Part shown: piece by piece, positions 1-15,378 of the stretch | Layout of the letters: the number at the start of each line of letters is the position of its first letter | Numbering within the stretch: the first letter of the stretch is position 1 | Virus record (IMG/VR): IMGVR_UViG_3300031773_000035 | Location: 1 to 25,235 of that record | Length of the DNA stretch: 25,235 nt | Source: a virus | Taxonomy: Duplodnaviria; Caudoviricetes | Reading direction: 5' to 3' (one strand) | The notes under the pieces: generated by a model | What the model saw: only the letters and a program-made list of their open reading frames with translations | The model's database searches: none | Told to the model about the DNA's origin: nothing | Made by a program: the position numbers and the translations under genes

Positions 1-26
1 CCAGAATCGAACTGGGAAAGAACCAT

Positions 27-134
27 TTAGCCGAGCTTATGTGCCAACCAAGCAGGTACCAAAGTACATGCAATGATTACCAAGCTGTAAAAGATAAAAG
101 CCACGATTTCGTGGCAGTGAATTAGATCTATCAT
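27..134 (-). CDS. Small hydrophobic (single TM-like) peptide, 35 aa: MIDLIHCHEIVAFIFYSLVIIACTLVPAWLAHKLG
   Basis: Not in the ORF track. Minus-strand ATG at 134-132 and TAA at 29-27. Strong SD GAGGAGG (147-141) lies 6 nt upstream of the ATG. An uninterrupted hydrophobic stretch of about 21 aa is followed by HK. Confidence 0.7.
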   Translation of the reverse strand: MIDLIHCHEIVAFIFYSLVIIACTLVPAWLAHKLG

Positions 135-140
135 TTGAAA

Positions 141-147
141 CCTCCTC
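141..147 (-). promoter_or_regulatory. Shine-Dalgarno GAGGAGG of the 35-aa ORF, base-paired within hammerhead stem III
   Basis: Plus-strand cctcctc (141-147) is complementary to gaggagg (200-206). The SD is 6 nt from the ATG at 134. Confidence 0.75.
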
Positions 148-206
148 GAGTTTCGACCTGTCATGGTCATCTTCAGAGTGCCGACATCAGGCACTGACTG
201 AGGAGG
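141..206 (-). ncRNA. Type III hammerhead ribozyme (self-cleaving), predicted cleavage after GUC between positions 196 and 195
   Basis: Minus strand reads CCUCCUCAG-UC / AGUGCC-ugauguc-GGCACU (stem I) / CUGAAGA / U / GACC-augaca-GGUC (stem II) / GAAA / CUCGAGGAGG (stem III, one bulged C). The conserved core CUGANGA, GAAA and UH is all present. There is one extra U between A9 and G10.1, an insertion position known to be tolerated in natural hammerheads. Loop I UGUC is complementary to loop II GACA. Confidence 0.88.
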
Positions 207-220
207 AGGAATTTAATCAC

Positions 221-373
221 AACAGGGCAAAATCACTGCTGTTCAAATTAGCCAGAAAAACCGAGCAAGAATGGCTCTAAGGTTTTTCCTAGTCTCACCA
301 TTTCCTCTGGTGCGGATCGGTTGCCCCAACCTAAGCCTTAGCTTCGTCTAAGAGTGTCCATCTCTGCCGATGG
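221..373 (-). ncRNA. Putative structured leader or ncRNA upstream of the hammerhead (chain of hairpins)
   Basis: Inverted repeats at 358-373 (CCATC/GATGG), 319-331 (GGTTG/CAACC), 296-312 (CACCA/TGGTG), 255-288 (GAAAAACC-GAGC/GCTC-GGTTTTTC) and 221-243 (AACAG/CTGTT). No convincing ORF. Strand is inferred from the adjacent ribozyme. Confidence 0.4.
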
Positions 374-518
374 GATCTCTGCAACAAATACAAAGCTAGT
401 GCCTCTAAGTAGACATCGCAAGTCATTCGTCAACATTTGTCGACAAGAGAGAGCAGAAACACCCTCTGACCTGCGGTTATACAACCAAAAAGAATTTTCA
501 AGAAATCCCCAAAAAGCA

Positions 519-1165: not shown

Positions 1166-3067
1166 ATGGCTAAACCGAGACTAAAGAAATACGAAACATG
1201 GTCTAAAGACAGACTGTATAAAGCGGCGATAGCCAAAGTCTTAAACGAAGGCTGGACACAATCCGATGCCGCAGTTGAGTTCGGCATCTCACGCCAGCAC
1301 CTCTCCAAGAGGCTCGGCATCGAGCGTGAAGCTCGTGCCGTGCGTGTAGAGGAAGCCAAAGAACAAGCCAAGGTTGGACCGCTGGGTCTGAACGAGAAAC
1401 GCCGTGTGGGGACTTTCGCTGAGTTCTGTGACCATTACCTGCAAAACTGGTCTTGTCCTGATTGCGGTGTTCACCATGAGACTCCACAGTTCCACCATGA
1501 TATAGCTGAGGCTGTTACTGGGGACTATCGGAGGGTTTTGATTAACATGCCTCCGTACCATTCTAAATCTACGTTGGTGACTGTTTGGCATACCGTGTAT
1601 GACATTTGCCGTGATCCTAATTTGCGTACTTTGCTTGTTTCCAAGTCTTTGCCTTTTGCTAGAACCTTTATGCACTCTATTCACGAGATGCTGTCTAATC
1701 CTGAATTATATGCAGACGGTCCTAATCTGATTGATGATTGGGGTCCATTCCGTCCTGATGGACAGTCTGTCTGGTCATCTGAGAACATTTATGTTGCTGG
1801 TAGGACTACTGCAGAGAAAGATCCAACTGTAGCTGTGTTGGGTGTCGGTCAGCAGATTTATGGTAGGCGAGCCGATGTAATTAAGTTTGATGACGTTGCT
1901 ACTTTGGACAACCAGCGCAACCCTGATCGGGTTGCTGGAATGATGGAGTGGTTCGATAAGGAGGCTTTGTCTCGTATCGGTAAGACTGGTCGTGCTATTT
2001 GGATTGGTACTCGTGTTACGGCTGGTGATGTTTACTCTCAGTTGGGTACTCGTCCGGGATATAAGGTTTTGAGGTATCCGTGTATTATGGATGATGAAAC
2101 GGAGACAACTCTGTGGGGTGAGCATTTCCCTTACTCACAGGCATTGATTCACCGTTCTGAAATGCGTCCTGCTGACTTCCAGTTGGTTTACCAGCAGGTT
2201 GACATTCCCGGTGCAGGAGCTTCTTTCACTCAAGACATGCTGGATATGTGTAAGGACACTTCTCGTGTGAGGGGTCATTATCAGGATGGCTGGAGACTTT
2301 TCGCTGGTTTGGACCCAGCAGGGGCTAATAAAGGTTCGGGTTTTACAGCTTTTAGTTTGGTCGGTTTAGACCCAGCTACAGGTAAACGCTATTTAGTGGA
2401 CTCTATTGCAGTTAAGTCCATGAAGGCTCCCCAGATGAAAGATCAGATTCTAGAATGGACAGACAGGTATCCACTGTATGAGTGGAGGGTGGAATCTAAT
2501 GGTGTTCAGTCTCAGATAGTGCAATATGACATGGAGCTAGTTCAACATTTAGCTAAACGTGGAGTGAGGGTAGTACCTCATCATACTCACGGTAATAAGT
2601 GGGACCCCCAGTTTGGTGTTGAGTCGTTAGCTCCAATAATGGAAACTGGTTTGTTTAGTATCCCTTGGGCTAATGCGCCTACCCAGCAACAGTTCCAACC
2701 TCTAATGGAGGAATTGATTGCTTTCCCGATGGGTGCTGTTTCTGACAGAGTTATGTCATTATGGTTTGCTGATCTTGGCGCACGTACTTTGATGAACAGG
2801 GCTCATTTACCAATGTTCCATGAACGAATGCACGTACCTAACCGTATTAAGAAGAATCGGAGAGTTATAGATTTCCAAGCTCAGGAGGTTCGGCGTATAG
2901 CCCCTCGTGACCAGAGACCCGGTCACATGACTCGTGGGCAGTGGGGTTACAGGCGACAAACTGTAGGTCAAGCTCAACCGCATGGTGAAGTAGAAGAGTA
3001 CGATGTTGAGGATGGACCTCAGCCATTTAACATAGACCCAAAAATATGGTCTCCTGAAGAGGAGTAA
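1166..3067 (+). CDS. terL: Terminase large subunit with N-terminal helix-turn-helix domain
   Basis: Walker A-like INMPPYHSKST, Walker B VIKFDDV, coupling motif IGTR, RNase H-like nuclease GLDPAG...VESNG...SDRVMSLWFA. N-terminal HTH WTQSDAAVEFGISRQHLSKRL. SD GGGGAG at 1153-1158. Lies upstream of the portal. Confidence 0.93.
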   Translation: MAKPRLKKYETWSKDRLYKAAIAKVLNEGWTQSDAAVEFGISRQHLSKRLGIEREARAVRVEEAKEQAKVGPLGLNEKRRVGTFAEFCDHYLQNWSCPDCGVHHETPQFHHDIAEAVTGDYRRVLINMPPYHSKSTLVTVWHTVYDICRDPNLRTLLVSKSLPFARTFMHSIHEMLSNPELYADGPNLIDDWGPFRPDGQSVWSSENIYVAGRTTAEKDPTVAVLGVGQQIYGRRADVIKFDDVATLDNQRNPDRVAGMMEWFDKEALSRIGKTGRAIWIGTRVTAGDVYSQLGTRPGYKVLRYPCIMDDETETTLWGEHFPYSQALIHRSEMRPADFQLVYQQVDIPGAGASFTQDMLDMCKDTSRVRGHYQDGWRLFAGLDPAGANKGSGFTAFSLVGLDPATGKRYLVDSIAVKSMKAPQMKDQILEWTDRYPLYEWRVESNGVQSQIVQYDMELVQHLAKRGVRVVPHHTHGNKWDPQFGVESLAPIMETGLFSIPWANAPTQQQFQPLMEELIAFPMGAVSDRVMSLWFADLGARTLMNRAHLPMFHERMHVPNRIKKNRRVIDFQAQEVRRIAPRDQRPGHMTRGQWGYRRQTVGQAQPHGEVEEYDVEDGPQPFNIDPKIWSPEEE

Positions 3068-5644: not shown

Positions 5645-8600
5645 ATGTCTATGGCGGAAGAAGAACTGCTAGTAGAGCCTGAAGAAGAACAAGTTCAACC
5701 TTCGATACTCGACCCCATAAAACAAAAAGGTGTTTTAGAAGGTGGGGCAGAACTTCTGGGAAACATGCTACCCGGCTCCTTTGTAGCCAACCAAGCTCAA
5801 CAACGAGGACAAGATGGCTATTCAGTAAAAGACGTTTTTAGTTCCTTATTGGATGTAGGTACATCAAGTGCCTACTTCACTCCCATAATAGGAGATGCTC
5901 TAGGGACTAGAGATGCCCTCAACATTTGGGATGATCCAGATGCTGACACATTTACCAAAGCAATGGGAGTTATGGGTGTCATTGGTCTTGTGCCTTTGGC
6001 AGCTTCAGCAGGTGCAGCAGTAAAAACCAATCGTGCTTTACAAAGCGCTAGGGCAGCATCATCGTTACCTGTTTCAAGCCGTCACCTCTTTGGCGACACT
6101 CTTTCTCACTTGTCAGGTGTAATAGATGAGCCTGTCAAGGCTCAATCCCTGCTTGCGACTCTAGGAGATAGTCGAGGTAGAAAAGTATTACAGGTTTTAC
6201 AATCAAAAGATTTTGAAGCTCAACCTATGGATAGAGCCAGAACTTTCGATCATATACGAACAGGGCTACAAGGTGAGAAAAGGTTAAACAACGGAGACCA
6301 AGCAATCGGCTTTCTTGACACATTAGGGTCAAATTTGATTGAAAGGATTCCCAGCTACAGACAGAGTGTCAATTCTTTGGAATTAACACCAGATCAAGTC
6401 AGAGTGTCAGCAGTAGCTTACGAAACGGCGAAAATGGATTACCTAGTTAAAACAAATAAACTCTCTGTTGGGGAAACCCAACAAAATGTGATCCCTATGT
6501 GGGAAAAGTTTATTAAAGGGGATGAGCTTCTTGCAGGAGAAGAGGTAATTTTCTTACATGATGCAATAGTTGAGATGGCTCACCTAACAGAAGGAACAGT
6601 TCACCCTCATTTTGCTTTTGATGATATTCGTTTTGGTCTAGATCAAATACTTTTAGATGGTCCTAATTCTAAAGTATTTATACAAGTGTTGGATCACGAT
6701 GGTGTTTCTTTAACACAGTTGACAGAAGAAGCCACTTTCAAACGTATAGTTAATGCTTCTGAGGTGAATGAATCTTCCATGTTGACTCATTTTTCTCAGA
6801 ATATAGTTGAGTTTTTCGATCAAGAAGTTAGAGGTTCGCTAGGGGAAGGTTCCTTAGTGGTGACAAGCTCTGGCGTACCGGGTCTTATTGACCACACTTT
6901 ATCTGCATCAGCAGGTTTCACTGTCTCTGGTCAGAATAAGACAGTTGACAACCTCGTTGAAAGGGCGCTTGAGATAGCTGGTGCGTCATTAGGTGAAGTG
7001 GCTACTGGTTCAGGCACAAAAACAATAACTGGTCCCATGTTGCGAGGTTTAATAAATCAAGTATTCAATCAGAAATTGGATCAGAACCTATCTCCCTCTT
7101 GGGCTATCACAGGCACAGGTAATCTAAGACAGGCTAAAGAGGGTGGAATTTTTTATCATTCTGCTAAGGGTGGCAAAATTGAAGTAGAGCGTGAATATCT
7201 ACACATGGGGACTTTAGAGTCTGCCATGATGAGAGCGCAAGTCCATCCAAATAAGTCTATCCCTGTACAGGAATATGAAGTTCGCCCTCAAAAACCTTAT
7301 TTTCCAGATGGCAAGATACTGGATGAAAGAATAGGAAAAGACAGAACAGAACTTTGGGTAATGGACACTGTTGGTAAAAAAGCGAAAGATAGTTTACGAG
7401 CGCAGGGTTATGATTCTGTTCCTTATATCAATGCTGTAGAAGGTGAGGGTCAAATTTCTTATATGATTTTAGATCCAAGAATCTTAAAACCTTTAAGAAG
7501 AAGAACTGTTCAAGTCAAAGGCGACCATGATTTTGGTGCAGGGAAAGGAAAGGACATCATTTCTGCTCCTAGAGATGGTGCTGGACAGGTAATATACCAT
7601 GTTGAAGTTATTGAAGAATTTTCAAATACTTGGGTTAAAGGTCAAGGACCAGCAAGAATTTACAATGACAACTTATTGAATATGCTTCAAAACCCTGCTC
7701 CAAATAAACTAGGTTTCAGGGCTCATCCTCCTAGAACTTCAGCGCCTAAACAAGTCCTACATGAACTTTTGAACGCTCCATCGACTAGAAAGGGATCGGG
7801 AACTCTAGTAGTTGCTGCCAGAGCAGATGGTGGTGTGGAAATAGTATCTCCCTTAACAGGTAAAAAAAGCAAGGGAAGGAATCGTGGAACCTACTCTTCA
7901 GTAGGTGGCAATTCACAAGGTCAACATGTGAGATTAAAGGTTCCAATGAGGGTAGCTGACACCGAATCTACCGCCATAAGAATTGCTGAATCAACAACTG
8001 TAGATGCCAGGGAAGCCTCAACAGGTTTCAGAAAAATGACTACCAACCATAGATCTTGGGCTTTTGAAGATGGCAGACATATCGTAATTTCAACTACTCA
8101 ATCCTCCGATGCCGTTCAACAACACCAGCAGATTTCATTACTGTTGGAAGAAGCTGGCATTCCACACAAACTCACCCTTGAGGAACCTCACATAGGGCAA
8201 TCAAAAGTTTGGAGAGACAGGATAACAGGAGAAGAGTATTGGTCTGTTGAAGAGTTTGAGGCTCAGGGTGTCAATCGTGGCAATTTAACTCTAGAGCTTC
8301 ACGAGGAGCCTAGAGTCCAAATTGCTTTAACTTTTGAAGATCCAGACAGTCTTTCTAGAGCGTGGCATATCCTACATGAACCAACCCCTCATAATGGAGA
8401 TCTCTCCGTTCAAGGTATAAACACTGTTTCCAGTGAATATGTCCGTCATTATGCCAGAGAGTATGGTCTTAAAATTATACCTCGTGGAATTAAACGAGAA
8501 ATAGAGTTCATAGATGCAGGAGGAGGGACTTCCCTCACTGAATTACAGGGTCGAAAGATAGATCCAAAATTTGCAGTCTCTGATCGTAAAACAATGGTCA

Positions 8601-9970
8601 AAATAGCTAAAGAATATGCCACTAAACGGACGACTAAAAAACTTGAAGCAGAAACAGCATCACAGTATGGCAATTTCATTATTGAAACTGATGCTCAGTT
8701 TCAATGGATAACTGAACAAGCAGGAGTCCGAATGGAAGTTGTTGACACAAATCCGTATGCCTCTCCGATGGAAATGGCTGCAGATATTCGTGACAATAAA
8801 AGACTTAAGATTCTGTCAACAGAATCCACTGGTGGACATCCTCTTTTAACAAATGCACAGAATGACAAGTTTAGATTTGTCCATGATTATTTTGGTCACT
8901 CAGCTTTAGGCAACTCTTTCACTAGACACGGAGAGTATGTTGCCTACCTTAAGCACGGTCAGATGTATTCTGAGGGAGCTAGAGGAGCCATGCACTCAGA
9001 AACTGTTGGTCAAAACGCTTGGCTGGTTTTCTCACCAGAGAATGAAGCTAAAGCATGGAAAGCCCTCCGTCACGGTCAAAGTTATACAGGTGACTTCATA
9101 GACCAAAGAGCGATTATTTTAGACAAGAAATACTGGAGTAATAAGGTACTGGCTCAAGAGGCTGGTTATATGACAGGCTCCGACAAGGGTAGGCGTATAG
9201 ATGGCATTTACAATGAAGAGATTTTAGATATTTCTGCTTACACCTATGGTGCAGATGAAGCTCCTGTAGGAACTAAAGCAGTTTTTGAACATCATTTTGA
9301 AGATGAGGCAGCATCAAAGCTGATCCACATGTCGAAAGATGGGGATGTGAATAGTCCTAATACAGAAGTTGCTTATGTCGCTGAAGATGGCATGTACCAG
9401 TATTTTGGTGATTCTGAAACAAAAGTCCATCAAGCAGGGAAAGGTTCTACAGGCTTCTCGAAACAAAATGGCGAGGTTTGGTGGCAAGGGGTTGCCAAAG
9501 TCTTAAACCATGAAGGTGGAGATTTTTTAGATGGCGCTCACAAAGATCTTTTTGATGTGAGGTACAAGCCTGCCCCAGATGCCCCAGCCGAATTTCGCTC
9601 CATAGCACCTACACGAATATATTTATACATCCCACCTGAAGGTCAAGGTGTACCATTACTTGCTTTTACAGGAACAGGGGCAGATGTGACAGGAGGGCAA
9701 GAAGCTGTTACACGCTTACGAGCCATTGCAAAGCAAGACCAAAGCCCGGAAAGGATCATTACAATAACCAGAAAAGGTGCCGAAATGCCTTTTGAATGGG
9801 TTGAGGATCCATCTCTTCCACCACGAGAAAGTGGGGTATATGAAATTGATAAAGATGGAGTCAGATTGCCTCCTTCATCACCCGGAGTGGATCCTTTCAT
9901 AGTAGATGATTACAACCACTTCATGGGAAGAACGAATACAAGAAAACGAACACTTACGGAACAAACATGA
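5645..9970 (+). CDS. Large polyvalent probable internal-virion/ejection protein (1441 aa) with a pre-toxin-TG-like N-terminus, an ART-like domain and an HDxxGH domain
   Basis: N-terminal PIIGDALG...GVIGLVP hydrophobic hairpin. FYHS...HMGT...GYDSVPYINAVEG...SYMILDP at 7148-7489 matches the pattern of ADP-ribosyltransferase domains in polyvalent proteins. NDKFRFVHDYFGH...GE...H...SETVGQN at about 8660-9030. Confidence 0.65.
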   Translation: MSMAEEELLVEPEEEQVQPSILDPIKQKGVLEGGAELLGNMLPGSFVANQAQQRGQDGYSVKDVFSSLLDVGTSSAYFTPIIGDALGTRDALNIWDDPDADTFTKAMGVMGVIGLVPLAASAGAAVKTNRALQSARAASSLPVSSRHLFGDTLSHLSGVIDEPVKAQSLLATLGDSRGRKVLQVLQSKDFEAQPMDRARTFDHIRTGLQGEKRLNNGDQAIGFLDTLGSNLIERIPSYRQSVNSLELTPDQVRVSAVAYETAKMDYLVKTNKLSVGETQQNVIPMWEKFIKGDELLAGEEVIFLHDAIVEMAHLTEGTVHPHFAFDDIRFGLDQILLDGPNSKVFIQVLDHDGVSLTQLTEEATFKRIVNASEVNESSMLTHFSQNIVEFFDQEVRGSLGEGSLVVTSSGVPGLIDHTLSASAGFTVSGQNKTVDNLVERALEIAGASLGEVATGSGTKTITGPMLRGLINQVFNQKLDQNLSPSWAITGTGNLRQAKEGGIFYHSAKGGKIEVEREYLHMGTLESAMMRAQVHPNKSIPVQEYEVRPQKPYFPDGKILDERIGKDRTELWVMDTVGKKAKDSLRAQGYDSVPYINAVEGEGQISYMILDPRILKPLRRRTVQVKGDHDFGAGKGKDIISAPRDGAGQVIYHVEVIEEFSNTWVKGQGPARIYNDNLLNMLQNPAPNKLGFRAHPPRTSAPKQVLHELLNAPSTRKGSGTLVVAARADGGVEIVSPLTGKKSKGRNRGTYSSVGGNSQGQHVRLKVPMRVADTESTAIRIAESTTVDAREASTGFRKMTTNHRSWAFEDGRHIVISTTQSSDAVQQHQQISLLLEEAGIPHKLTLEEPHIGQSKVWRDRITGEEYWSVEEFEAQGVNRGNLTLELHEEPRVQIALTFEDPDSLSRAWHILHEPTPHNGDLSVQGINTVSSEYVRHYAREYGLKIIPRGIKREIEFIDAGGGTSLTELQGRKIDPKFAVSDRKTMVKIAKEYATKRTTKKLEAETASQYGNFIIETDAQFQWITEQAGVRMEVVDTNPYASPMEMAADIRDNKRLKILSTESTGGHPLLTNAQNDKFRFVHDYFGHSALGNSFTRHGEYVAYLKHGQMYSEGARGAMHSETVGQNAWLVFSPENEAKAWKALRHGQSYTGDFIDQRAIILDKKYWSNKVLAQEAGYMTGSDKGRRIDGIYNEEILDISAYTYGADEAPVGTKAVFEHHFEDEAASKLIHMSKDGDVNSPNTEVAYVAEDGMYQYFGDSETKVHQAGKGSTGFSKQNGEVWWQGVAKVLNHEGGDFLDGAHKDLFDVRYKPAPDAPAEFRSIAPTRIYLYIPPEGQGVPLLAFTGTGADVTGGQEAVTRLRAIAKQDQSPERIITITRKGAEMPFEWVEDPSLPPRESGVYEIDKDGVRLPPSSPGVDPFIVDDYNHFMGRTNTRKRTLTEQT

Positions 9971-12900
9971 CCGAGATGCGAGATATTGACCTGAATTTAA
10001 GAGCTATCAGAAACTTTGAGGCAACTGGTTCCATGCCTGGTTTACCTGACATGGTGAAGCTGGACTTGGCTGCCAATTCTGGTATGACACCTAATGCGAC
10101 TGTTGAGTTTTTAGGTGGACTGTCTCAGGATCTTACCCTACCTTTAAGTACCACTAATATGTCTTATGAGGTAGCCCAAGCACCAATACCTACTCCTACA
10201 CCTCCACCAAAAATAAACAAAGACAATGGTTACAGTGCTGAACAGAAAATAAGAATGTTCACCAGAGCTACCGCCAATTTGAAAGCTCCGACTGACCTTA
10301 CAGGCTCTCAAGCTGTTATTGACTGGAAGAAGCGAGCCATCAGAATGGGGTATCTCAACCAGAATGATGTGGAGATGGACAACAGGTGGGACCCTGCTTA
10401 CAACCGTGTTGCATGGCAGATGTCTCAAGATGATTTCAATAGACGCATGAAAGGCAATAGTGCTGCACCGGGCGCTTCAATGGGACAACTTTTCCAAACC
10501 TTTGACGATTGGCTGTCACCTACAGGTTTAATGTCCGCTGCCGTAGGTATGGGTTTCTGGTGGGACGCTGAACAGATAGACAAAGAATGGGAAAAGTGGA
10601 AACGAGGCGATGCCCTTAAGGGCATTAAGGATGCTTGGGTAAAAAAAGATGGTGAAAGCTGGGGCTCCTATTTCAACCCCATTAAGTTCACCAAAGACAT
10701 GTGGAGAGTGTTGGGTCCAGTTGATGATCTTTTAATGCCTGTCATTAACACAGCTTTGCTGTTTACAGGTGTTGGAGAAGTGGTGGCTTTCTCAAGAGCT
10801 ACGATGTTAGCGACTAAAGGTGTTAATGGTTTCAATTTAGCTCATGGGGCTGTAAAGGCAAACCGTGTAAGAAACTATATTGCTGGTACTCGTGCAGGTC
10901 GTGTGGCAGGAATGTCAGGTGACATCGCTACTGATATAAATAAAATGTCGCAAGGTGGACTAATAGCTGGAAGGATATTCCCCGGTGTAGATCGTGCAGC
11001 GGAATTGGCTGCACAAGGCAAGAACATTGGCTCTGGTCGCAAGATTATCGGTGAATCTATGACAGGTTGGAGAAACCTTCGTGGGGTAATGCTCGCCAAG
11101 AAGTCTGTTCAAAAAGGTATGCAACTAGGTTTTGTCAATAGGGTGGAACAGGCTTTCGGCTACAACCCTGAGTTGTTGCCGGGTCAGGAAACTGTAAAGA
11201 ATTTCACAGAGGAGATGAGGCGCAACCCACTCGTCTGGGGAATGGGTGAAGCATTATTTACCCCTACAGCTATCCTTCAGCCGGGGCAGATCAAAAAACC
11301 TTTCGGGTGGGTCAATAAGTTTGAAAAGGTAGGCAAGAACTCCTTCTATTCTGATGAGTTTAGAAAAGCACACGAGTTCCAGATAAGCCAAGGCTTAGGT
11401 CAAGAGGCTCTTGAGGCAGGTATGTCTAAAGGACAAATAAAGCAAATGAGGGCAAGCAGATTAAAGGAATGGAATAAAGAAGTTAAAGAGCATGGTGTCT
11501 CTAAGGCTTTAGCCAATGAATATGCTGATGGCGATTTGCAGAAGATGGGCGCTTTCACGACTTGGATAGCGACCATTTCAGCGATTGACGACCAAGCAGC
11601 GGCATTAAGTAAAGTTACTAAAACAGGTGAGCTTTTTTCAGAAGGTGCTTCAAGGTTCGATCACAGTTTTCATATAGCTCGTAATAATGTAATCAATCAA
11701 CTTAGATATATAGATGAAGATGACATTGAGGGCATCATTCATGTCATGGCTTGGTCGAGAGCGAAGAACGCTAAACAGGCTGCCAAGCTAGTAGAAGAAA
11801 TAACTGAAAGTCTTGTTGGCAACACTAGACGGCAAGAAGCTCTTAGAAGGCTTATGAGTGTTCATAATGGTAAAAGAGAAGGTGCTTTTCAAGACCTTTT
11901 AGCACGTTACCTGACCGAGCCGGGTAAGCTGTCCGAGTCAATAGCTATCCATTTGGAATCTATGGGTAGGTGGGATGACTTCGTTGACAATATGGATGAG
12001 ATAGGGTCAATCTATCTAGCTGGTGGTTTAGATGAAGCAACAGCTAGAATACCTGTCAATCCAGAAACAGGGATGCCTCTAAAGGGTCAGACGGCTAGTT
12101 TGAAAGGACCGAAATCAAGTCCTCATCAGATTTATGGCAGACCAGACCCTGAAACAGTTTTCACCACCAGTATCAGTGATGTTTTAGACGATCAAGAATT
12201 TCTTGATTTTGCTCAGAAGGGTTATTTCGATGTTTTCAATAAGCCTTTCAATCCCAACGGCAGGTTTACAGTTGCAAGAACCGCTACGCCTACAGCACAA
12301 ACCAAGCGTGTCGAGATAGCGGTCATAAAACGACTAAACCTCATAAGGAATACCATGCGTAGGATGAGCGGAAGCTACGCCTTACCAGAAGAAAGAAGGT
12401 TTCTTTCTAAGCTGGAAGTAAAATTAAGTGGGAAAAAGTTCCCCTCTAGGATGGACGTTTTAGAGAATGTGAATCTCAAGCAACTCGAAGCCGCCTTAAC
12501 AGATCTAGGTGCTACAGCGAATCAGGCTAGAAGGTATCGCAGATTATTCAATTATGCTAAAAAGAATGACATCTTTGGGTTTGATGAAATAGCCAAACAT
12601 GCTAAAACAAGACTCACAGAGATCAACAAGTCATCACATTGGTCTAATGTTCATGGGATTCATTCCTCTTTACCTTTAGATATGAAGGTTAAAGGCTTAG
12701 TGAGACAAGTTGCCTACACAGCTACCGAAGTTGACGTAGACACTATCCCTCCTGCTTTAGCAGCCAAATTAGAACAAGCTGGCTATAAACTTGTTCATGG
12801 CGTAGAGTTCGCAGCCCCTAGCGATCTACTGAAACTTTCAGTGGAGTTTGAGGACATTGTTAATAAAGCAAAGTATACCAACTCACTAGGAACCGTTGGA

Positions 12901-15378
12901 CTTGCCGGTGTTGCTCGCAAACTAGAAGCAGGTGCAATTAAATCTGCTCGTGGTTTATACAGGTCAACTAACAGATGGCAACCTGATGCAGCTACCGCCA
13001 TGTACAGAACTACCTATAAGAACGCTTTACAGAGAGCTTTGTATGACGTAACTGATAGTGGTAAAAATTACCAGAAAAGTGCTGATGGTATAGCGAGTGC
13101 AGATTTGAACAAATTGATGGATCACCTGCAAGATGTTGTTCACGAAATTGGCAATGACATGATTCAACTTCAGCATGGAAAACGAAACATGTCAAAAATC
13201 TCTGTAAGAAGAATGAACATAAATGTTCAATCTTCTTTCACTCCAGCGGCACCTGCAGATTTGGTTAGGAGTCCCAGTATCTGGAGACAGACAACGGAAA
13301 AGCTGAGTGATTTGGGTTATACAGATAAAGAGATGGGCAGAATCTATAATGCCTTGAAAGAGTCTCGTGTTGTTGGTCCTCAGATACGAGGCAGGTTCAC
13401 TAACATGTTTGACAAGATTCAGTCAAATAACCAGTTGACAGGTGTCTTAAGGACGTTTGGCTCTGTCCCTGTTGAAGGCTGGCAACAGATGAGTGGTATA
13501 AAACGAACAGTTAAGGCGATACCTAGATTCCTTGGCAGGGGAATAGGCACTGGAGCAATTTCTGGTGCGGTTATATTGAGACATGATGAGATCAATAAAG
13601 ATGTAGACCGTTCGACATTTCAGAACTTTGCCGTAGCAGTAGGTTCTACTTTAGGTGGAAGGATGCTATCTGGAAAAATGATGAGATGGCTTCTTAGGAA
13701 AACTGGTGGAAATGCCGATGAAGTCGGCAGGTGGATTAAGCCTATGATTCAAAAGGTTGATGACTCAGCTAGATATAAACATTGGGCATATATAGCTGAT
13801 TCTGCTGCCACTGCAAGAGACTATTTCAGGTTCTCCTTGTCGCCTATCTTTGATGCTTCAAGGTATACAGAAGGAATGGTTTTAAGCCAGATAGGTGACC
13901 TACCTGAAGAGGTGATTGCTCGTGGTGGTTTAAGGTTCAACATCTCTCCCAGCAGATGGAAGAAAGACAAGTTGAAAGAACTCACTGGTAGTCGTAGAGG
14001 TAGCAGGACAAAACAAATAGAGGTTTTCCATAACCCTAACCTTAGATCGACAGAACCAGCGGAGTATTTGACCGCAGAACAAATGAAAGCTAGGAATTTA
14101 GATCCTGACAAGTGGGATTCAACCACCAAGAGAGCATCGGAAGTAGTTGACTCTCAGTGGGACACTGTAGTTAATGAATTTTCCGCTATTGGTAAACGCC
14201 GTCACGATTTCGATTACGAAGCTCTTGAGGCTGGTACTGCTCGCTTCCGTCAGATAGGTATTTTAGGTTTTAATACTCAAGAATGGATGGCTTCCATGTA
14301 TGCGGATTTAACTCGTTTACATGGTCTTGAACCTCAGAAGGCTTACGATATTGCTCGTAAGGCTTTCACTTATGGTGTGCAACCTCGTTCTGGGCTGGAA
14401 ATGAACATAAATGCCGTGTTCTTCCCCTTCTCTTTCACTAAGAAAATCTTCTCCCATGCAGCCAAGTTCTTATCTCAGGACTGGTCTAGGGCAGCGATGC
14501 TTCACGATGCTGTAAAAACCTACGAGATTCTCAACGAAGAATACGACCTGAATGATATGTGGGCAGATTACATGCCAATAATGACTAAACTCTACAGGTT
14601 GAATCCTTTTGCCTTTGGTGCAACTATGGGTGAGTTCGGTGGTGCTAACCGTCCGTTTATCAACTTTATAGGTGGCAGTGCAGCGAATTTAGACATTGAT
14701 CCTATTTTCAACGTGTTCCTACCTCAAGGGCATGACATTAGGGATGACAAAGACATGGTTGCCTTAGAGTCAACCTATAAGCGTTTAGCTCCTGTGTTTA
14801 ATGACATAACTCACATGTTACAACAAGTAAAAGAGCAGGGTCGTGTAATTTTAGGAGACACCCACATGACAACCACTGCTGAAGTTCAAGCAGGTTTTGA
14901 AGCAAGATCAGAACTTCGTGCCAGAGTGGACAGGATGATGAAAAGGGAAGGTTTCACAGATGGTATTAAAGATATTCGTAAGAAAGCAGCCGGTAGTTGG
15001 AACACTTATCTAAAGGAAGAAGAAGCTCAAATCAGGGAAGATTTCCCTGCTTATGCTGAGGCTTATGCAGATGTCATTTCTAATAGTGTTATGAAACAAC
15101 AGGAGATAGCAGGACTTAAAATGGTTCACGATGCGTTCGTAGCAGAAAATGAAGCTACAACTACGCCTGTAACTCGTGATGAGAAGGTTGGCTATCTATT
15201 GAAGTACGGCGACATGCTTGAGAAAAGGTATGGAGGGATCGAATATGTGCCTGTTGATGAGATTTATTACATGTTAAAACAAGCCACTTCTTGGGCGAAA
15301 GATGACAACTACATTAAATTAAAGTGGAGATCATTACTTAGATCCAAGTGGGGTCCAATAGAAACAGAGTTGGTATGA
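9967..15378 (+). CDS. Very large probable internal-virion/ejection protein (1803 aa)
   Basis: ATGA-coupled to the upstream gene. Looks mostly helical, with Gly/Ala-rich hydrophobic segments (INTALLFTGVGEVVAF; GIGTGAISGAVIL...FAVAVGSTLGG). Sits between portal and capsid genes. No catalytic motif recognised. Confidence 0.6.
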   Translation: MTEMRDIDLNLRAIRNFEATGSMPGLPDMVKLDLAANSGMTPNATVEFLGGLSQDLTLPLSTTNMSYEVAQAPIPTPTPPPKINKDNGYSAEQKIRMFTRATANLKAPTDLTGSQAVIDWKKRAIRMGYLNQNDVEMDNRWDPAYNRVAWQMSQDDFNRRMKGNSAAPGASMGQLFQTFDDWLSPTGLMSAAVGMGFWWDAEQIDKEWEKWKRGDALKGIKDAWVKKDGESWGSYFNPIKFTKDMWRVLGPVDDLLMPVINTALLFTGVGEVVAFSRATMLATKGVNGFNLAHGAVKANRVRNYIAGTRAGRVAGMSGDIATDINKMSQGGLIAGRIFPGVDRAAELAAQGKNIGSGRKIIGESMTGWRNLRGVMLAKKSVQKGMQLGFVNRVEQAFGYNPELLPGQETVKNFTEEMRRNPLVWGMGEALFTPTAILQPGQIKKPFGWVNKFEKVGKNSFYSDEFRKAHEFQISQGLGQEALEAGMSKGQIKQMRASRLKEWNKEVKEHGVSKALANEYADGDLQKMGAFTTWIATISAIDDQAAALSKVTKTGELFSEGASRFDHSFHIARNNVINQLRYIDEDDIEGIIHVMAWSRAKNAKQAAKLVEEITESLVGNTRRQEALRRLMSVHNGKREGAFQDLLARYLTEPGKLSESIAIHLESMGRWDDFVDNMDEIGSIYLAGGLDEATARIPVNPETGMPLKGQTASLKGPKSSPHQIYGRPDPETVFTTSISDVLDDQEFLDFAQKGYFDVFNKPFNPNGRFTVARTATPTAQTKRVEIAVIKRLNLIRNTMRRMSGSYALPEERRFLSKLEVKLSGKKFPSRMDVLENVNLKQLEAALTDLGATANQARRYRRLFNYAKKNDIFGFDEIAKHAKTRLTEINKSSHWSNVHGIHSSLPLDMKVKGLVRQVAYTATEVDVDTIPPALAAKLEQAGYKLVHGVEFAAPSDLLKLSVEFEDIVNKAKYTNSLGTVGLAGVARKLEAGAIKSARGLYRSTNRWQPDAATAMYRTTYKNALQRALYDVTDSGKNYQKSADGIASADLNKLMDHLQDVVHEIGNDMIQLQHGKRNMSKISVRRMNINVQSSFTPAAPADLVRSPSIWRQTTEKLSDLGYTDKEMGRIYNALKESRVVGPQIRGRFTNMFDKIQSNNQLTGVLRTFGSVPVEGWQQMSGIKRTVKAIPRFLGRGIGTGAISGAVILRHDEINKDVDRSTFQNFAVAVGSTLGGRMLSGKMMRWLLRKTGGNADEVGRWIKPMIQKVDDSARYKHWAYIADSAATARDYFRFSLSPIFDASRYTEGMVLSQIGDLPEEVIARGGLRFNISPSRWKKDKLKELTGSRRGSRTKQIEVFHNPNLRSTEPAEYLTAEQMKARNLDPDKWDSTTKRASEVVDSQWDTVVNEFSAIGKRRHDFDYEALEAGTARFRQIGILGFNTQEWMASMYADLTRLHGLEPQKAYDIARKAFTYGVQPRSGLEMNINAVFFPFSFTKKIFSHAAKFLSQDWSRAAMLHDAVKTYEILNEEYDLNDMWADYMPIMTKLYRLNPFAFGATMGEFGGANRPFINFIGGSAANLDIDPIFNVFLPQGHDIRDDKDMVALESTYKRLAPVFNDITHMLQQVKEQGRVILGDTHMTTTAEVQAGFEARSELRARVDRMMKREGFTDGIKDIRKKAAGSWNTYLKEEEAQIREDFPAYAEAYADVISNSVMKQQEIAGLKMVHDAFVAENEATTTPVTRDEKVGYLLKYGDMLEKRYGGIEYVPVDEIYYMLKQATSWAKDDNYIKLKWRSLLRSKWGPIETELV

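Follow-up and report, generated by a model that had tools for sequence, protein, structure and literature searches.

By the account of reviews, little is known of what self-cleaving ribozymes do in bacteria and phages, and the available text of Weinberg et al. (2019; PMC6765202) names glmS as the only well-understood bacterial case: a self-cleaving RNA in a bacterial 5′ UTR that is tied to gene expression, as the element described here would be. In the prophage hammerhead clusters of Perreault et al. (2011; PMC3088659), several ribozymes punctuate an operon whose flanked genes vary; the accessible main text never uses the words "Shine", "ribosome binding" or "translation". Masking of a Shine-Dalgarno (SD) sequence by a ribozyme is an engineered design. 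In the synthetic hammerhead and twister switches covered by the sections of Felletti et al. (2016; PMC5052635) used here, an SD/anti-SD stem is split by the cut and cleavage raises translation; the hammerhead version is credited there to Ogawa and Maeda, and SD-masking twister constructs in E. coli gave 5- to ~100-fold more reporter when active. Among natural systems, type I toxin mRNAs have a precursor that hides the ribosome site until it is processed (excerpts of PMC13000454 and PMC11228461), and the RNase III sites of T7 early transcripts allow a precursor to be cut to gene-length units before use (PMC8708148, in excerpt). Within the open-access literature, we found no natural SD-masking ribozyme, and none is described in the available portions of PMC3088659, PMC6765202, PMC10085705 and PMC13725137 (the last on eukaryotic RNA viruses).

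The stretch of DNA analyzed here (the window) is a whole virus record of 25,235 nt with a completeness estimate of 52%. The + strand carries the genes for terminase, portal, major head and tail proteins; a leftward operon begins on the other strand and continues beyond the window's end. The downstream part of this operon was read instead from locus L001, which has a 100% identical terminase and runs 2.3 kb beyond the window's end through small leftward genes, one of them weakly SprT-like. A relative, L431, is part of a 45.9-kb record with a completeness estimate of 94%. The closest cultured terminases, distant matches only at ~28% identity, belong to Streptomyces phages of ~46 kb, and the ribozyme has no match in cultured phages. 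The host is probably an actinobacterium, since one Acidimicrobiaceae metagenome bin contains both relative L340 and a 78% identical terminase, although bins can be contaminated. The best-matching sequencing runs carry a marine metagenome label and come from a single study. Elsewhere in the window, a motif of ~35 nt at 445-481 matches unannotated actinophage stretches, several of them at a genome end and mostly with weak E-values; together with an A-rich region at 480-600, it may mark the genome terminus. Two very large ORFs on the + strand (5645-9970 and 9967-15378; 1,441 and 1,803 aa) lie between the portal and major head genes, have little or no family match and possibly encode internal virion proteins.

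An earlier note on this DNA described a hammerhead ribozyme whose stem III contains the SD of a small membrane-peptide gene. Judged from its sequence, the minus strand from 209 to 141 is indeed a complete type III hammerhead fold, with the core, the GUC triplet, three stems and every other named part present and self-cleavage predicted (Table 1). The anti-SD reaches 209, 3 nt past the 206 given in the note, and two details had been missed there, the extra U169 and the bulged C148.

Table 1. Positions of the head ribozyme and neighboring features (window numbering unless stated otherwise)
Feature	Position	Strand	Remarks
Anti-SD, CCUCCUCCUC, CCU repeats	209-200	-	Outer 5′ strand of stem III; would stay with the 5′ product
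Inner 5′ strand of stem III and GUC triplet	199-196	-	GUC at 198-196
Predicted cut	between 196 and 195	-	Position from the hammerhead consensus
Stem I (6 bp)	195-190/182-177	-	Covariation
Loop I (7 nt)	189-183	-	
Catalytic core CUGAAGA	176-170	-	
Extra U	169	-	Between A9 and G10.1
Stem II (4 bp)	168-165/158-155	-	G10.1-C11.1; covariation
Loop II	164-159	-	
GAAA core strand	154-151	-	Followed by the inner 3′ strand of stem III and bulged C148
SD GAGGAGG	147-141	-	Outer 3′ strand of stem III; 6 nt ahead of AUG 134
35-aa ORF	27..134	-	AUG 134, stop 29-27; predicted transmembrane stretch at residues 10-28
Non-coding leader (predicted 5′ product)	196..390, approximate	-	Upstream end guessed
tRNA-top-half-like unit, first half	32-1	-	Short stem, GG loop, T-arm; truncated at record end
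tRNA-like unit copies in L001 (L001 numbering)	2318-2378, 1878-1942, 1014-1078, 500-560, 26-88	-	
Terminase large subunit	1166..3067	+	phrog_38, E 1.6e-73; opens the divergent virion operon

Stem III consists of three core-proximal pairs, the bulged C148 and a 7-bp SD helix; among relatives, the bulge at this position ranges from 0 to 8 nt. The core carries the C3-U4-G5-A6-N7-G8-A9, G12-A13-A14 and A15.1-U16.1 that define type III hammerheads, and it is intact in all 34 distinct cores parsed, as the parser demanded. The cleavage triplet follows the NUH rule, being GUC here and GUC, GUA or GUU across 37 parsed loci (the parser required GUH). The claimed complementarity of UGUC in loop I and GACA in loop II is present as 4 bp, and in L003 both loops are altered together and are still complementary. 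Over the 34 distinct cores the loop pairing is weak, with a mean of 1.88 bp compared to 1.68 bp for permuted partners (p 0.033). The extra U is a known variant that hammerheads tolerate. An extra U at the position of U169 raised trans-cleavage 3-4-fold in a viroid hammerhead, and an insertion there is conserved in Penelope hammerheads, according to excerpts of PMC3705267 and PMC4209133, respectively. In a common variant of the head ribozyme (L005, L150, L159, L016, L026 and related loci), a pair of additional A residues stands between stem II and G12, and stems I and II have 4 bp and 6-8 bp, respectively; in L014, there is one extra base on either side of stem II.

The search against the Rfam hammerhead models that the note had called for did not detect the element. 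Rfam gave no hammerhead at gathering score on the window and none at E up to 10 on positions 1-1200; RF00008 (Hammerhead_3; gathering threshold 48.5 bits) did not match the head ribozyme, and neither the window nor L001 contained a hammerhead or any other relevant family by this search. The head ribozymes of relatives are likewise missed, whereas their type II ribozymes are detected. A structure descriptor, on the other hand, finds exactly one site in the window, with one loose match in 300 Markov-random windows and none at the observed stem lengths. In an alignment of 12 sequences picked with a stem-requiring descriptor, all 143 of 143 cells are paired (29-41% in slid-alignment controls), with two-sided changes in 7/12 pairs: 5/6 in stem I, where 100% of cells are paired, and 2/4 in stem II. 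Because the descriptor already required stems, the variety of pair types is the informative part of this covariation. The SD/anti-SD helix has no two-sided covariation, since the SD and anti-SD are nearly invariant. Of what the note proposed to look for in related contigs, covariation is found in stems I and II and the placement of the SD in stem III is kept, but the SD helix itself does not covary.

Relatives were surveyed with the terminase as an anchor that is independent of the ribozyme. This gave 44 loci, 32 with a terminase at least 76% identical and 12 at 44-61%. Of the 32, 17 extend at least 1,200 nt upstream, and each of these has a type III hammerhead on the strand opposite the terminase, 970-1,534 nt from it and at the head of the leftward operon, with the SD and then a start codon directly downstream. 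Several of these loci are near-identical, so they are not 17 independent events. The anti-SD is intact in 15 of them and decayed in L431 and L432, which share one identical ribozyme. Among the 15 loci with at least 76% identity and less than 1,200 nt upstream, the hammerhead is visible in 2 and not in 13, and it is absent from 12/12 terminase relatives at 44-61% identity. A mask lacking a hammerhead in such distant relatives was considered and is unsupported: candidate genes occur in 8/10 loci, their first genes are ambiguous, and opening costs range from 0.5 to 7.7 kcal/mol. Upstream of the terminase in the more distant relatives L445, L446, L456 and L452, other repeated, strongly folded intergenic units precede each SD, and L450 has five type II hammerhead-like sites and no type III head.

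Pattern scans extended the set. A viral scan with six stem III pairs fixed returned 26 loci, of which 24 extend the helix across the entire SD and 23 show a start codon 7-10 nt beyond; a flipped-polarity control with the SD on the 5′ strand returned 4 loci and one valid fold. When only the 5′ strand was fixed and the 3′ side left unspecified, 22/120 metagenome loci passed the stem filter, and 21 of these 22 have an SD plus start. In a genome scan, 3/120 loci passed the stem filter, with an SD in L340 only and the remainder attributable to chance. A shifted pattern gave 9 loci with 4 valid folds (L465, L468, L469 and L471), each heading an operon divergent from a terminase. These form a second lineage with the same layout and a terminase 23% identical to that of the window.

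The head hammerhead is not the only RNA unit in these operons, and its sequence context suggests that it is one part of a punctuation system, capping a processed operon, because type II hammerheads or tRNA-like units separate the internal genes. Rfam detects type II hammerheads between internal genes of L005, L013, L158, L159, L161, L166 and L340. In the window's lineage and others, that intergenic slot is taken by a repeated unit that resembles the upper half of a tRNA and has a hairpin and then an SD downstream of it; besides the copies in L001, there are copies in L205, L420, L193, L162 and L155. Across 10 copies, 91% of cells are paired and 13/17 pairs have two-sided changes, and the unit belongs to no Rfam family. 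It is a candidate RNase P/Z substrate or a candidate ribozyme of a new kind; cutting by host RNase P or Z would accord with the rules of tRNA processing. Such punctuation is consistent with the processing idea of Perreault et al. (PMC3088659, as far as its accessible text goes). The operon is probably early, given its position and gene content. The note had suggested that release of the first-gene SD might also license the downstream operon; this finds no support, because each internal gene follows an RNA unit of its own and the SDs of these genes are mostly open.

Four RNA-library runs from one study contain the region as assembled contigs, with small-share runs (X5-X10) excluded as evidence. 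Because these contigs extend over virion genes and over intergenic DNA as well, they may stem from carried-over DNA. Among the run pieces listed, none covers 31 nt to each side of the cut, and one extends 19 nt across it. In the run contigs, at L001 514-1041 and 2299-2340, entire gene cassettes are missing or exchanged at the repeated units in population variants, and gene order differs between L001, L007, L205 and L086; the cassette swaps and differing orders suggest recombination between repeats.

The anti-SD is conserved in the alignment, and the lowest-energy fold and the active fold both pair it with the SD; every base of the SD is paired in 35/37 precursors in the former fold and in 36/37 in the latter. 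Loss of the 5′ product is predicted to lower the cost of opening the SD by at least 2 kcal/mol in 30/34 family contexts (median 4.9), with L151 and L190 left out as non-members and three rows lacking a readable gene also omitted; the drop is below 2 kcal/mol in L016, L017, L205 and L231. Within the same operons, first-gene SDs cost a median of 9.1 kcal/mol to open (n = 18) and internal SDs 2.8 (n = 92), a comparison among related, not independent, sequences; in L431/L432 the first-gene SD costs 2.7. An outer helix over the start codon was not counted, being absent from L002. A search pattern with stem III left out returned 120 viral loci, among which 53 distinct type III hammerheads fall outside the family, family members in the list being counted with the family. 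Stem III in these unrelated phage hammerheads has a median of 5 bp. Among the 45 with a downstream gene, SD access is gained in only one, L100 of the second lineage (median gain 0), and where there is a clear SD it is unmasked in 24/25 and masked in 1/25. Thus, the placement to which the note drew attention is conserved in the phage family and the second lineage, specific to the first gene and uncommon among other phage type III hammerheads. Among L030-L149, many unrelated phage hammerheads of type III that carry the extra U finish 15-30 nt before a start codon, and placement in a 5′ UTR seems general for phage hammerheads.

Given the observed fold, covariation, fixed place, SD/AUG spacing and variable first gene, we lean slightly toward translation of the first gene waiting for cleavage and leader removal. 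Stem III would close on the nascent RNA once the SD is transcribed, keeping ribosomes off while the ribozyme folds. Fast constitutive cleavage at 196/195 would leave a 5′-OH mRNA beginning with the stem I and stem II hairpins, and a ribosome, helicase or 3′-exonuclease would strip off the 5′ product and open the SD; the internal genes, separated by their own RNA units, would have open SDs. The device would be a processing checkpoint with a short delay for gene 1, rather than a ligand sensor or a peptide-specific lock. More tentatively, and as something that we regard as possible but not quite probable, the whole would be a natural cleavage-activated switch in which gene 1 is silent until the RNA cuts itself, within an operon that interchangeable RNA cutters divide into mRNAs of one gene each, with type II hammerheads serving in some members and tRNA mimics for host RNase P/Z in others.

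It is unlikely, though by no means negligible, that the ribozyme serves processing only. It would then make a defined, protected 5′-OH end, cleavage being too fast for regulatory masking, and the SD would be the nearest strong partner for closing stem III, with the internal units doing likewise for later genes. The internal type II hammerheads in several relatives are what this predicts, and the conversion of phage transcripts to gene-length mRNAs was proposed by Perreault et al. (PMC3088659, accessible text). Moreover, bulged variants have an inner stem III of just 2 bp and need the SD helix in order to fold, and the mask has decayed in L431/L432, which have their own inner stem. However, other phage type III hammerheads manage with the short stem III given above and leave the SD outside it, and L434-L436 retain a separate 7-bp SD helix besides their own 5-6-bp inner stem III. 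This separate helix, together with an SD helix that is kept despite 7-8-nt bulges in L205, L086 and L120, therefore argues for selection on the mask itself. The decay in L431/L432 argues against such selection, and is in keeping with a mask that is lost after stem III has become independent of it.

For a switch that depends on leader removal, strand release is the weak step. The two cleavage products are predicted to remain associated, by -13.0 kcal/mol in the window and by values from -3.5 to -22.2 among the 37 loci, and the window's free 3′ product can partly refold over the SD, so that the opening cost falls from 9.7 to only 4.8 kcal/mol. A leader decoy SD that would capture the anti-SD was sought and rejected (mean z -0.17, 0/36 below -2). 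The predicted product association and the lack of a decoy are also what would be expected if the mask were a lasting damper, with the cut leader staying bound and gene 1 weak or late whether cut or uncut, which would offset its promoter-proximal position. We consider this improbable: engineered ribozymes free a masked SD upon cleavage in E. coli (PMC5052635, available sections), and the catalytic core is intact throughout the cores that the parser, which required it, returned. In 20/37 precursors, the lowest-energy fold engages part of the core, by a folding program that ignores tertiary contacts; such pairing could delay cleavage.

The leader also bears on two further proposals. The note had raised an Mg2+- or protein-sensitive gate, for which we find no support: no sensor-like insert and no conserved sensor domain joined to the ribozyme was seen, the peripheral loops are 3-9 nt and variable, the leader is unconserved between sub-lineages and has no Rfam match, and the extra U raised cleavage in the viroid case (PMC3705267, in excerpt). 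A consensus scan of 196-390 found no promoter-like site. The other proposal is that the leader acts in trans, its 3′ end being complementary to an operon-wide SD block and shutting genes down as the leader accumulates. The internal genes of L001 are indeed preceded by the same SD block as the first gene, and the anti-SD is one CCU repeat longer than the active fold requires, but such complementarity follows from shared SDs, and the leader sequence differs between sub-lineages and folds no more strongly than chance would allow (z = -1.24, not significant). We regard a trans-acting leader as very improbable.

Of the first gene itself, homologs of the 35-aa peptide are 83-86% identical with many synonymous changes, which marks the ORF as a real gene. 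The best 19-residue hydropathy of the peptide is 2.49; it has no PHROGs or Pfam family, and Atlas leads only below 0.9. A consensus scan, which is weak evidence, found no + strand promoter-like site near the ORF that could drive a cognate antisense RNA. The note had implied a special link between ribozyme and membrane peptide. The first gene after the same ribozyme differs among relatives, which have many unrelated genes of 35-118 aa in this place; L001's second gene comes directly after the ribozyme in L205 and L086, and L205 has the peptide as gene 2, unmasked, with an SD opening cost of 1.6 kcal/mol. Since the first gene varies and the L205 copy is unmasked, the link is unsupported, and the peptide is incidental to the ribozyme, a cassette that moves among relatives. 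A safety lock on a toxic membrane peptide is the least probable reading and hardly credible: the conserved hydrophobic ORF resembles a type I toxin in size and character, and such toxins are usually translated only after processing (PMC13000454 and PMC11228461, excerpts), but the same ribozyme stands ahead of those many unrelated genes, the open L205 copy makes masking non-obligate, and the peptide lacks any family match in PHROGs, Pfam or Atlas. Inside the peptide gene, at 115-90 on the minus strand, there is a terminator-like hairpin with a U-rich tail, present in 3/3 full variants of the gene, which are homologs of one another, and in 0/128 other gene starts checked; it may end transcription if the gene goes untranslated, or may simply reflect the codons.

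Returning to cleavage-dependent translation of the first gene, the element can be set beside the systems described at the outset. The ribozyme class is already known; the SD-masking head architecture is well supported by the comparison of related loci, and its function is predicted. With the type III hammerheads of RF00008 (clan CL00010) it shares the core, GUC site, three stems, topology, G10.1-C11.1 pair and, putatively, the loop-loop pairing. Unlike them, it falls below the family's score, has a long, bulged stem III built from the SD, and lies in a DNA phage leader rather than a circular RNA replicon; Rfam misses the head ribozymes of this phage family. Compared with the clusters of Perreault et al., as far as their accessible text describes them, the present family differs in the masking of an SD by its head ribozyme and, in some members, in having tRNA-like units in place of internal ribozymes. 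In type I toxin mRNAs and T7, protein RNases make the cut (same excerpts), whereas in the phage element the RNA itself would be the cutter. The glmS ribozyme needs a metabolite, and its cleavage turns the gene off through decay (PMC6765202, available text); the phage element, if the proposed reading is true, would be an ON switch, not an OFF switch, and, next to glmS, the second bacterial self-cleaving ribozyme with a defined job. Phage ribozymes would thereby gain a testable job, in an element that is compact (70 nt) and sharply predictive, and the family supplies natural variants with intact, bulged and decayed masks, while the later genes, with their open SDs, serve as an internal control. 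The engineered switches, in the sections of PMC5052635 cited above, are synthetic and usually carry an aptamer, whereas the phage element is natural and aptamer-free, with a predicted function; if it works as proposed, a standard design of synthetic biology exists in nature.
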